Shown here: in pieces, positions 32,026 to 34,056 of the stretch | Layout of the letters: the number at the start of each line of letters is the position of its first letter | Numbering within the stretch: the first letter of the stretch is position 1 | Made by a program: the position numbers and the translations under genes | Notes under the pieces: model-generated | What the model was told of the DNA's origin: nothing | What the model saw: only the letters and a program-made list of their open reading frames with translations | Databases searched by the model: none | Source: Escherichia phage phiEc_1 | Length of the DNA stretch: 64,000 nucleotides | Direction: 5' to 3' (one strand) | Sequence record: LC768462.1

Positions 32026-34056
32026 ATTTGTGGCATCGTATTAGCTGGCGGTAATCTGTCAAGCACTGATTTAGACGTATTTAACCAACTCTTTTATGCT
32101 GGAGTATTCCGAGGACAACATTCCTCCGGTATCTTTGGTCAGCGTAAAAGTACTAAGGAAGTCTTCACTTATAAAGAAGCTCTTCCTTCTTTCGCATTCA
32201 TCCTACAAGATGAGTACAAGAAGCACACCACTGGTGAAACAGCTTACACTGTAGCACCTTCATGGATTGTTGGTCACAGCCGTCATGCAACGAAAGGTGC
32301 AGTTAACGCCAAGAACGCCCATCCTTTCCAACATGGTAACATCACTCTGGTTCATAATGGAACCTTGATGGACCAAGACCTGTTACCTGACAGTAAAAAC
32401 TTCGAGGTAGATAGTGAGAACATCTGCCACTCTATTAACACTATTGGTGCAGCAGAGACTATTCAAAAGCTGGATGGTGCTTTCACCTTAATCTGGCATG
32501 ATGCTTCTGATAACCGCCTTCATATCATTCGTAACGAAGAGCGTCCTTTCCATCTCGCACGTTGTAACAGAGATTGGTTTGGCGCTTCTGAAGAAGATAT
32601 GCTGATGTGGATTCTGAAGCGTTCGAAGTCTCACAAGAACCGTATTGATGAGCATTTTGAGTGTAAAGTTGGTACAGAGTATATCTTTGACATGTCTAAT
32701 AACAGCATGACACTGGTTGAAGAGGTCGCCCACGAGCTTCCGGTTTTTACGGTAGTCAATCGTTGGGGCAATTACTACTCGAACAATTACAGCCAAAGCA
32801 ACTATCAAAGTTCCTCAAAAAGCAGTACAAGCAATCCTTACGACACGAAGCCGGGTGTGACAGCGGCAGACGTTCGTCGAAGAAACGCAGTGGTAAGTCA
32901 AAACAAAATCGCAAGCGATCGAAACATTGATATTCGCCGCGATATGACTGTGGAAATCACTCCGCATGAGTTTGTTCCTTATGCAACTGCCGGTGCTGTT
33001 CCTTCTCGTGGTAAGATGATTGGTTATATCTACGATGAGAAATCTCAAGAGTATATCGAAGGTGATGTTCATAACGTAGACATTAAGGCTTATCAGGATG
33101 CCCTGAAAGACCCTAAAATTGTTTACCGTGGGACAGTATCCTGCATCTCCGAAGTCAATGCTATGGTCCGTTTAGTGATCACAGCAGGTCGTTTTGTTGA
33201 CCCATCTCTGGAGAAAAAGGAGCCTGAGTCAACTACTGCTGACTTCGATGATGATATCCCTTTTGATATGAATGATAGTTTCGTCAACAAGAATGGTGTT
33301 ACTATCACTCGTAAATTCTGGGAAGCGCACTCTCATGGTGATTGTGGTGGTTGTGATAAGCACATTGATTGGAAGGATGCACCTAAAGCAGTCTTCGCAT
33401 ATCAGTGCTATTGGCATCCTGAATGTCTGGAAGGTTTGACTAAACCTAAAGAGGAAGAAGAGGAGGAAACTCCTATTGGTGTTTGTGAAATCTGCGGTGA
33501 AGTTAAAACAGAGAATGAGTTCGATGATGAACTTAGTCGTCTTCGTGGTGAAGATATCTGTAAAGTCTGCGCTGTAGAAGTAAAGAAGAAAGTGTCTAAT
33601 GCTACGATCAAAGATGGTTATGTCTGGATTAAAGCAACAGATACAACAAACGCCCGTCGTCCTGAATTCGCTTTACGTGTAACTGAAGATATGATCGGTC
33701 GTATGACTGTATTACCTTCCTCAGCGAAACAGACAGGCATCACTCTGGAGGATGTTGTTGATGCTTATGTTGAGAAACGTAGCAACAGTATTTTTGCAAT
33801 CTCAACTAAGCCAAAAAAGGAGGAACCTGCTGAGAAAGCAGGTGTGTTTCCTGAATCACGAACAGCTCTCCGCAAAACTGTCGTCAGCTTCGACGGAAAC
33901 CGAAGCACTGACTTCACCAAAGCAATGTGGTCAACCCTCGGCTACTGCTCAGAGTGTTTTAAGCAGATTCCGTGGCGCGATGCTGAAAGTTGTACGCTTG
34001 GTTCTATGAATCAAGTTTATTGTAATTCTCCTAAATGTTCATTGAATAGAGGTTAA
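32026..34056 (+). CDS. class-II (Ntn) glutamine amidotransferase domain with ~450-aa Cys-rich C-terminal extension
   Basis: CGIVLAGG...FRGQHSSGIF...HNGTL begins right after an in-frame TAG; only in-frame start is ATT 32026 with AGGTGG SD 8 nt upstream. Confidence 0.65.
   Translation: MCGIVLAGGNLSSTDLDVFNQLFYAGVFRGQHSSGIFGQRKSTKEVFTYKEALPSFAFILQDEYKKHTTGETAYTVAPSWIVGHSRHATKGAVNAKNAHPFQHGNITLVHNGTLMDQDLLPDSKNFEVDSENICHSINTIGAAETIQKLDGAFTLIWHDASDNRLHIIRNEERPFHLARCNRDWFGASEEDMLMWILKRSKSHKNRIDEHFECKVGTEYIFDMSNNSMTLVEEVAHELPVFTVVNRWGNYYSNNYSQSNYQSSSKSSTSNPYDTKPGVTAADVRRRNAVVSQNKIASDRNIDIRRDMTVEITPHEFVPYATAGAVPSRGKMIGYIYDEKSQEYIEGDVHNVDIKAYQDALKDPKIVYRGTVSCISEVNAMVRLVITAGRFVDPSLEKKEPESTTADFDDDIPFDMNDSFVNKNGVTITRKFWEAHSHGDCGGCDKHIDWKDAPKAVFAYQCYWHPECLEGLTKPKEEEEEETPIGVCEICGEVKTENEFDDELSRLRGEDICKVCAVEVKKKVSNATIKDGYVWIKATDTTNARRPEFALRVTEDMIGRMTVLPSSAKQTGITLEDVVDAYVEKRSNSIFAISTKPKKEEPAEKAGVFPESRTALRKTVVSFDGNRSTDFTKAMWSTLGYCSECFKQIPWRDAESCTLGSMNQVYCNSPKCSLNRG

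Follow-up and report, generated by a model that had tools for sequence, protein, structure and literature searches.

What is the role of the long non-catalytic half of an amidotransferase that is encoded in a cluster of amide-bond-forming enzymes in Escherichia phages? We address this question for Escherichia phage phiEc_1 (sequence record LC768462.1), of which a stretch of 64,000 nucleotides, here called the window, was analysed. The protein in question is the homologue of gp83 of phage phiEco32, has a length of 676 amino acids (aa) and is referred to as gp83 below. An initial annotation had described a glutamine amidotransferase (GATase) domain, a low-complexity linker and a Cys-rich region of ~250 aa with paired Cys/His clusters suggestive of zinc ribbons. 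This layout holds, except that an OB-fold domain of ~92 aa and an acidic linker, both situated between the low-complexity linker and the Cys-rich region, had been missed. The Cys-rich extension is real, conserved and, judged by its invariant ligand residues and a structure model, very probably zinc-binding. The missed acidic linker carries an internal copy of the C-terminal tip of SSB, the protein of the host that binds single-stranded DNA. It is a reasonable inference that aa 301-676 make up a flexible docking arm, because of the beads-on-a-string build, the conserved surface motifs and the retention of the region across phage families. Where this arm would dock is a more tentative matter, and is weighed below after the evidence has been given.

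Predicted zinc-finger modules

Cysteines are concentrated in the C-terminal part of gp83, with 13 in the last 252 aa and 5 in the first 424 aa (Fisher p = 0.003). These 252 aa also contain four C-x2-C pairs, a number that only 45 of 20,000 shuffles of this segment reached, and the enrichment is thus beyond chance. The three motifs on which the initial annotation was based are all present: CGGCDKH...CYWHPEC (C440, C443, H446 ... C461, H464, C467), CEICGEV...CKVC (C487, C490 ... C512, C515) and CSECFK...CNSPKC (C641, C644, C656, C666, C671). We call the corresponding modules ZnU1, ZnR2 and ZnU3, respectively (Table 1).

Homologues were collected by exhaustive HMMER and word-indexed searches, resulting in a small family with 35-70% identity over the full length and 20-63% over the C-terminal half. 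No replacement occurs across the homologues at C440, C443, C467, C512, C515, C641, C644, C666 and C671. There is hardly any at C487, C490 and H464, and the Cys by which H464 is replaced in distant members keeps the ligand. C461 and C656 are probably not ligands, because neither of them is conserved. The putative ligand sets are then C440/C443/H464/C467, C487/C490/C512/C515 and C641/C644/C666/C671.

A model of aa 415-676 was made with AF2 on the basis of a family alignment of 13 sequences. The model is confident (mean pLDDT 80.8), being low in two linkers only, and its fold resembles known zinc-binding domains. In the model every cluster has a C-x2-C knuckle, then a short hairpin, and then a helix whose N-terminus bears the second pair of ligands (H464-x2-C467 in the case of ZnU1), which is a treble-clef arrangement. 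The term 'zinc ribbons' used initially is supported by the conserved ligand pairs and the confident model, with the predicted fold being closer to treble-clef or LIM-like fingers than to classical zinc ribbons.

ZnU1 and ZnU3 are similar to each other, both by BLASTP (E 7e-5) and by hhalign of the two family alignments (97.8% probability, E 8.5e-13). They have the pattern G-x-x-x-T-[KR]-x-x-W followed by C-x2-C-x3-I-[Px]-W-x-D-A in common, and by these alignments the two are duplicates of one unit of ~55 aa.

The relation to LIM domains was found to be limited. The Pfam LIM profile matched 5 of the 13 members with a best E of 0.008, which is below the gathering score, and a profile search of the PDB gave leupaxin (E 0.0078), paxillin and LMO4, likewise below threshold. 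ZnU1 fits the pattern of a first LIM finger, C440-x2-C443-x20-H464-x2-C467 with W-H-x-x-C. After C467 the next C-x2-C comes 19 residues further on, behind the poly-Glu linker, and ZnU1 is not a LIM domain because the contiguous second finger is missing. Compared to the treble clefs of LIM, FYVE, RING and PHD domains, the fingers of gp83 are predicted to bind one zinc each on their own, and the zinc units differ from LIM by an extra preceding hairpin and a T-K-x-x-W helix.

No Pfam family reaches its threshold over the Cys-rich region, nor was a Pfam family match obtained for the small alpha/beta domain (aa 529-596) between ZnR2 and ZnU3. Sub-threshold Pfam matches on gp83 to A2M_BRD, zf-A20 and DUF7837 were judged spurious. 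Matches of the ZnU3 profile to MarR and cereblon, and of the ZnU1 profile to Fur, were regarded as chance or generic structural-zinc matches. A repeat protein of 1120 aa (P0007), which has a match to 'GYxSxCYKxIPW', was also rejected, having no C-x2-C and repeats resembling the carboxypeptidase-regulatory type. A word-indexed search with the ZnU3 profile returned no matches, not even family members, and is uninformative about the occurrence of the unit outside GATases. With the conserved ligands and the model taken together, it is in our view well supported and highly probable that the three treble-clef fingers bind zinc.

Predicted OB-fold domain and internal SSB tip

In a model of full-length gp83, aa 301-392 have a pLDDT of ~80 and the strand and helix order of an OB fold, while the GATase part is poor owing to a shallow alignment. 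When this model was submitted to Foldseek, asparagine synthetase was followed by a long run of single-strand-binding OB proteins, including the OB domain of Ta0387, Rim1, mitochondrial SSB, E. coli SSB, PriB, RPA and editosome OB proteins. Searching Pfam and the PDB with a profile of the OB domain gave chance-level matches only (P22 gp4 with E 0.26, and others), and phmmer searches with aa 301-676 and with the SSB-tip region gave no matches among the PDB sequences. The label 'SSB-like' is used here for the predicted fold together with the motif described below, because the sequence of the OB domain matches nothing known. A core of GATase and OB domain was found in every relative examined, with the OB domain kept in phages tf, Vibrio 1.293.O, APT65, SE131 and LAh_9. 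In this family of phage GATases the OB domain is the universal partner.

The acidic linker which follows the OB domain has a net charge of -5 to -11 in all homologues. Within this linker we find DFDDDIPF, followed by the invariant D414. The string itself was confirmed as an SSB tip, and it is identical to the 8 residues with which E. coli SSB ends. The number expected by chance is 7e-7 per window, and it is the only such motif in a six-frame translation of the window. The family consensus [DE][FL][DN]DDIPFD is nearly invariant, with D410 and D414 being invariant and P412 and F413 nearly so. In APT65 a similar motif, DFDNIPFD, is found in another linker, after the first finger, and the counterpart in LAh_9, DLDPPFD, is likewise situated in a different linker than in gp83. 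A short linear motif that is functional would be expected to change linkers in this way.

The order of OB fold, acidic disordered linker and DFDDDIPF is that of bacterial SSB, with an identical 8-residue tip. Unlike SSB, gp83 has a dissimilar OB sequence, a short linker and an internal tip, and the whole module is embedded in an enzyme. Membership of the SSB family was rejected, as there is no Pfam SSB match and the tip is not C-terminal with a free carboxylate. When E. coli SSB was compared to the window by tblastn, only the tip was matched and no canonical SSB gene was detected. gp83 may be partly SSB-like in its working, by way of the OB fold plus the acidic tip.

Distribution of the arm

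Structure comparison showed the same C-terminal module in the GATases from Cronobacter phage GAP52 and Aeromonas phage LAh_9, and sequence comparison showed it in those from tf, APT65, SE131 and vB_CsaP_009. The multi-finger arm is found in Gordonclarkvirinae, Grimontviridae (SE131, vB_CsaP_009), Aquaneticvirus APT65 and Lahexavirus LAh_9; the homologue from Pseudomonas phage tf is 531 aa long and has one zinc unit. The statement in the initial annotation that this is not a usual partner of a GATase is true for GATases in general, but within this family of phage GATases the extension is a conserved feature. The homologue in LAh_9 (L012 7001-9541) has a length of 846 aa and three apparent extra small beta-rich inserts between the OB domain and the fingers, at about aa 420-590 and 715-780.

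Amidotransferase domain, gene and start codon

The N-terminal domain of gp83 matches the Pfam families GATase_6, GATase_7 and GATase_4, with 55 bits for GATase_6 (cutoff 27) and 27.4 bits for GATase_7 (cutoff 25). It was assigned to PHROG 4736/18128, and its best Foldseek match is human asparagine synthetase. The translation opens with (M)CGIVLAGG, by which the catalytic Cys comes right after the initiator Met, and MCGI is kept across the homologues. With the catalytic Cys in place and Pfam scores above threshold, gp83 is by its sequence a genuine class-II amidotransferase.

In the databases the protein is named 'glutamine-fructose-6-phosphate aminotransferase', which these comparisons indicate to be a wrong name and an over-annotation. 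Identity with GlmS was rejected: with the NCBIfam glmS models, the cutoffs of which are 381-418 bits, scores of 36-43 bits were obtained over aa 2-199 only, and there are no SIS domains. The name 'L-glutamine-D-fructose-6-phosphate aminotransferase' has spread over dozens of phage records, the GlmS match, with 43 bits for a cutoff of 381, being to the glutaminase domain of ~200 aa only. Similarly, the label 'ribosomal protein S6 glutaminyl transferase' on the ATP-grasp gene of the same cluster is based on a 40-residue match. gp83 shares the N-terminal Met-Cys-Gly-Ile and the GATase fold with the class-II GATases GlmS, PurF and AsnB and with stand-alone forms such as EgtC and YafJ. In contrast to these it has no synthase, SIS or PRTase acceptor domain, the place of which is taken by an OB fold, an SSB-tip motif and three zinc fingers.

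The 5 kb in which the gene is situated are 99.9% identical to Escherichia phage EK5 and 97.4% identical to phiEco32. By this identity the window phage, a prolate podophage with E. coli as its host, belongs to Kuravirus in the subfamily Gordonclarkvirinae. The counterpart in phiEco32 is gene phi32_83 (RefSeq NC_010324.1), for which RefSeq has the same coding sequence of 2031 nt.

A program-made list of open reading frames (ORFs) had begun the frame at the TTG at 32365. No stop codon interrupts the frame after the TAG at 32020, its first residues read I-C-G-I-V-L-A-G-G, and no in-frame ATG, GTG or TTG exists between this TAG and 32365 (the first 113 codons). A class-II amidotransferase requires Cys as the first mature residue, and for this reason the ATT at 32026 must be the start of gp83. 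It stands seven bases after the Shine-Dalgarno (SD) sequence GGTGGA. The ATT is kept in three Kuravirus genomes, phiEco32 and Bas90 among them, and relatives from other genera start with ATG or GTG. The rare AUU start suggests a translation which is deliberately low or sensitive to initiation factor 3 (IF3).

Scanning the gene for promoters and terminators gave nothing relevant above the shuffle expectation. The counts of synonymous and non-synonymous differences among Kuravirus genomes are consistent with purifying selection, with too few differences to weigh much. In three genomes from one laboratory, EcM-vB1 (L002 4369-6009), EcK-vB and EcP-vB, the C-terminal region aligns as two pieces (H46, H47), and the annotated coding sequence is shorter than the full gene at both ends. 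This is due to either a sequencing-error frameshift or a natural truncation.

Table 1. Features of gp83 and neighbouring genes in the window. Positions are those of the window; pLDDT values are from the structure models.
Feature	Residues	Position	Strand	Basis or remarks
Whole gene, gp83 homologue	676 aa	32026..34056	+	ATT start; SD GGTGGA 32014-32019
Class-II (N-terminal nucleophile, Ntn) GATase domain	aa 1-240	32026..32745	+	Cys2 nucleophile; Pfam, PHROG, Foldseek
Ser/Asn/Tyr-rich linker, predicted disordered, then helix	aa 241-300	32746..32925	+	pLDDT <50 for aa 237-282
OB-fold domain	aa 301-392	32926..33201	+	b1-b2-b3-helix-b4-b5; structure model, Foldseek
Acidic disordered linker	aa 393-417, ~25 aa	33202..33276	+	pLDDT <50 for aa 396-414
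DFDDDIPF, then invariant D414	aa 406-413	33241..33264	+	same 8 residues as at the C-terminus of E. coli SSB
Internal peptide around the SSB-tip motif				ESTTADFDDDIPFDMNDS
ZnU1, putative zinc unit	aa 418-472	33277..33441	+	beta-hairpin, T-R-K-F-W helix, C440-x2-C443 knuckle, I-x-W-x-D-A, H464-x2-C467
Poly-Glu linker	aa 473-483	33442..33474	+	pLDDT <50; acidic in nearly all homologues
ZnR2, putative zinc module	aa 484-528	33475..33609	+	C487-x2-C490 ... C512-x2-C515 at start of long helix
Small alpha/beta domain	aa 529-596, ~65 aa	33610..33813	+	pLDDT 82-89
Disordered linker	aa 597-613	33814..33864	+	pLDDT <50
ZnU3, putative zinc unit	aa 614-676	33865..34056	+	hairpin, T-K-A-x-W helix, C641-x2-C644, I-P-W-R-D-A, C666-x4-C671
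COOH-NH2 ligase type 2		29413..30219	+	Pfam PF14395
Amidoligase_2		30843..31946	+	Pfam PF12224
DUF7195 small protein		34059..34292	+	Pfam PF23825; position kept in locus L003
RimK-like ATP-grasp ligase with own C-terminal extension		34500..35696	+	Pfam
GGACT/AIG2-like gamma-glutamyl(amine) cyclotransferase		36353..36817	+	Pfam PF06094

The amidoligase cassette

gp83 belongs to a cassette of 8 genes at 27239-36817, the order of which is kept in at least five phage lineages (loci L001, L003, L007, L009-L012), namely Kuravirus with its relatives, Grimontviridae, phages of the LUZ24/tf kind and two genera of Aeromonas phages. The cassette begins with two proteins without known function (~300-400 aa), followed by the COOH-NH2 ligase type 2, a protein of ~200 aa, Amidoligase_2, the GATase, one or two small ORFs (DUF7195) and the RimK-like ATP-grasp ligase, with GGACT/AIG2 nearby. 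The window thereby carries the phiEco32-type amidoligase cassette (Pfam PF14395, PF12224) with the enzymes in the same order; the phiEco32-type ligases were reportedly defined by Iyer et al. in 2009. The same gene order is found in phiEco32, locus L003, tf and SE131, and also in APT65, where only the GATase and the ATP-grasp enzyme are named. The cassette is syntenic in Gordonclarkvirinae, Grimontviridae, Aquaneticvirus, Lahexavirus and Krylovvirus, with the GGACT gene of LAh_9 being situated upstream of it. In Kuravirus, tf and APT65 the cassette is placed directly upstream of primase/helicase, exonuclease and polymerase genes.

The ATP-grasp ligase has an acidic linker followed by a separate C-terminal domain of ~80 aa (aa 317-398), which has its own PHROG, 20552. 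A ferritin/Dps-like protein is encoded at 42199-42810 among the replication genes and is called 'DNA binding protein' in Bas90. Rfam gave one match only in the whole 64-kb window, a tRNA at 23023-23095, annotated as tRNA-Arg in Bas90.

Among the papers searched, none was found that mentions the OB domain, the SSB tip or the zinc fingers of gp83, the genome papers just listing the genes. Neither did we find an experimental test of the cassette, and the sole proposed function that we found is the computational cell-wall guess from 2009.

Proposed function of the non-catalytic half

We propose that the non-catalytic half of gp83, i.e. the OB fold, the linker with the SSB tip, the fingers and the alpha/beta domain, would hold the N-terminal glutaminase on a macromolecular partner. 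There the glutaminase, as ammonia donor or as gamma-glutamyl-amide hydrolase, would join the other cassette enzymes in their work, these being two carboxylate-amine ligases, an ATP-grasp ligase of the RimK type and GGACT. The combination of an SSB-like OB domain with an exact SSB tip points to single-stranded DNA (ssDNA) and/or the proteins that read SSB tails as the most likely address, which would be the replication or repair machinery, where the arm would keep the glutaminase close to the substrate of the ligases. Also in favour are the position of the cassette before replication genes in several of the phages, the lack of an SSB gene among the annotations of Bas90 and among the matches in the window, and the restriction resistance of Gordonclarkvirinae described below. 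The arm may plausibly be targeted in this way, to ssDNA or to the interactome of SSB.

Several observations weigh against this address. The SSB-tip motif is absent from tf, SE131 and Vibrio phage 1.293.O, and the homologue in the latter, with 395 aa, consists of GATase and OB domain without fingers. By net charge the OB domain, ZnU1 and ZnR2 are neutral or acidic, and ZnU3 is the only basic module (net +2 to +6). The Foldseek matches of the OB domain are weak (E 0.009-0.1 and TM of about 0.4-0.48, for a model with pLDDT ~80), and neither the OB domain nor the fingers have sequence-level similarity to SSB or to nucleic-acid-binding families. Furthermore, the cassette enzymes are typical of peptide or gamma-glutamyl chemistry, no base-modifying enzyme is recognisable among the cassette proteins from Pfam and profile matches, and in vB_CsaP_009 and LAh_9 the cassette is located away from the replication genes. 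LIM-like fingers typically bind proteins. Finally, the tip is internal in gp83, with 263 more residues after it, and the known receptors of the SSB tip bind the terminal Phe at its free alpha-carboxylate (PMC3159472). That the invariant Asp after the Phe replaces this carboxylate, or that gp83 is cleaved at this position, is a speculation. Because of the internal motif, the neutral or acidic modules, the protein binding of LIM-like fingers and the peptide-type enzymes, we hold the docking of the arm on ssDNA or the replisome as a tentative reading, to which we give somewhat less than an even chance.

The same considerations apply to the suggestion in the initial annotation that the Cys-rich extension is a substrate- or nucleic-acid-binding module. 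This may be the case: the neighbouring OB domain, which is SSB-like, and the motif of the SSB tip are in favour of nucleic acid, and the lack of a sequence match to any nucleic-acid-binding family, the neutral or negative charges of all domains but the last finger and the LIM-like, typically protein-binding, character of the fingers are against. Zinc occupancy, binding activity, the identity of the partner and the chemistry of the pathway are what we infer.

The strongest competitor, in our opinion unlikely yet to be taken seriously, is an arm which serves as the scaffold on which a peptide or cell-wall pathway is assembled, where the fingers and the OB domain would bind proteins and have no role with nucleic acid. 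The scaffold would gather the two amidoligases, the ATP-grasp and the GGACT enzyme and/or keep hold of a substrate, protein or peptide, for instance the product of a small neighbouring ORF or a host protein. The charges and the variable location of the cassette mentioned above fit with it, and so does an enzyme set which is typical of ligation and removal of peptide or gamma-glutamyl groups. The LIM, RING and FYVE-type neighbours of the fingers mostly bind protein or lipid, and conserved small ORFs (DUF7195 and others) flank gp83. PMC10580990, which cites Iyer 2009, gives cell-wall modification against superinfection as the published prediction for the phiEco32 enzymes. What the scaffold leaves unexplained is the exact and conserved SSB tip right after the OB fold. 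It is this tip on which another explanation is based, namely that the arm is a decoy of the SSB tail in host takeover, filling the pockets of ExoI, RecQ, PriA, RecO and others. The decoy would inhibit repair and restart enzymes or recruit them to the phage DNA, largely apart from the amidotransferase chemistry. It accounts for an 8-residue match to the host tip that is both exact and conserved, in an acidic and disordered context as in SSB, and it agrees with the fact that no SSB gene is annotated in phage Bas90. The need of the receptors for a terminal carboxylate is again a problem, tf and SE131 keep the arm without the motif, and the conserved GATase fusion and the zinc fingers would have no explanation, which makes the decoy improbable.

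Two further explanations concern the zinc modules. The sites could be purely structural, stabilising spacer or oligomerisation domains with no specific ligand. Small domains often need zinc to fold, and no ligand was identified by any search, but the motifs T-K-x-x-W and I-P-W-x-D-A, which are surface motifs outside the ligands, are strongly conserved, and several phage families have kept the unit in its duplicated form; we regard the explanation as slightly less probable even than the decoy. Least probable of all, and very much so, is an arm which acts as a carrier in the manner of LysW, a zinc-ribbon amino-group carrier protein used by RimK-family ligases. In this case the ligases would build an intermediate on an acidic residue of the arm, as the covalent attachment site, from where the Ntn hydrolase or GGACT would release it. 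The window does have an ATP-grasp enzyme of the RimK/LysX type in the cassette, and zinc modules combined with strongly acidic linkers, including the poly-Glu run, are reminiscent of LysW with LysX/ArgX, where zinc ribbon, acidic segments and a RimK-like ligase also occur together. GGACT enzymes remove gamma-glutamyl groups, a BtrG-like note is present in the tf annotation, and a phage LysW is among the BFVD neighbours (rank 37, probability 0.99, 37 columns). This Foldseek match is, however, generic for tiny ribbons (E 0.3), and sequence conservation within the acidic linkers is limited to the SSB-tip motif. LysW uses a C-terminal Glu, whereas the C-terminus is basic or neutral here (CSLNRG; CRGKLNGSQK), and gp83 is much larger, multidomain and fused to a GATase. 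Membership of the LysW-type carrier family was rejected, as there is no acidic tail ending in Glu; gp83 ends with ...CNSPKCSLNRG and the homologues have basic tails.

Implications

Returning to the arm as a docking device for ssDNA or the replisome, one can go further and suppose that the cassette carries out a replication-coupled modification of a macromolecule, with gp83 being brought to the ssDNA or replisome by its OB fold, its SSB-tail mimic and its fingers. This extension is doubtful, being clearly less probable than the scaffold and only marginally more probable than the decoy. In this version an amino-acid-type hypermodification of DNA would be likeliest, the alternative being a covalent modification of host proteins that interact with SSB. 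The Gordonclarkvirinae are reportedly strongly resistant to restriction-modification (RM) systems, with no genome-modification pathway or restriction inhibitor known, and the BASEL-II paper speculates on DNA modification in these phages (PMC11990801). A replication-coupled modification would, if true, explain this strong RM resistance.

An internal SSB-tail motif would be unusual in itself, because the known receptors need a free C-terminus. With its OB fold, the motif of the host SSB tail and the duplicated fingers, the arm is the best clue to the target of the pathway. If it does address ssDNA or the SSB interactome, this would be a new way to couple amide-bond chemistry to replication, and it would provide a concrete candidate for the RM resistance of the Gordonclarkvirinae, phages which are used in therapy work.

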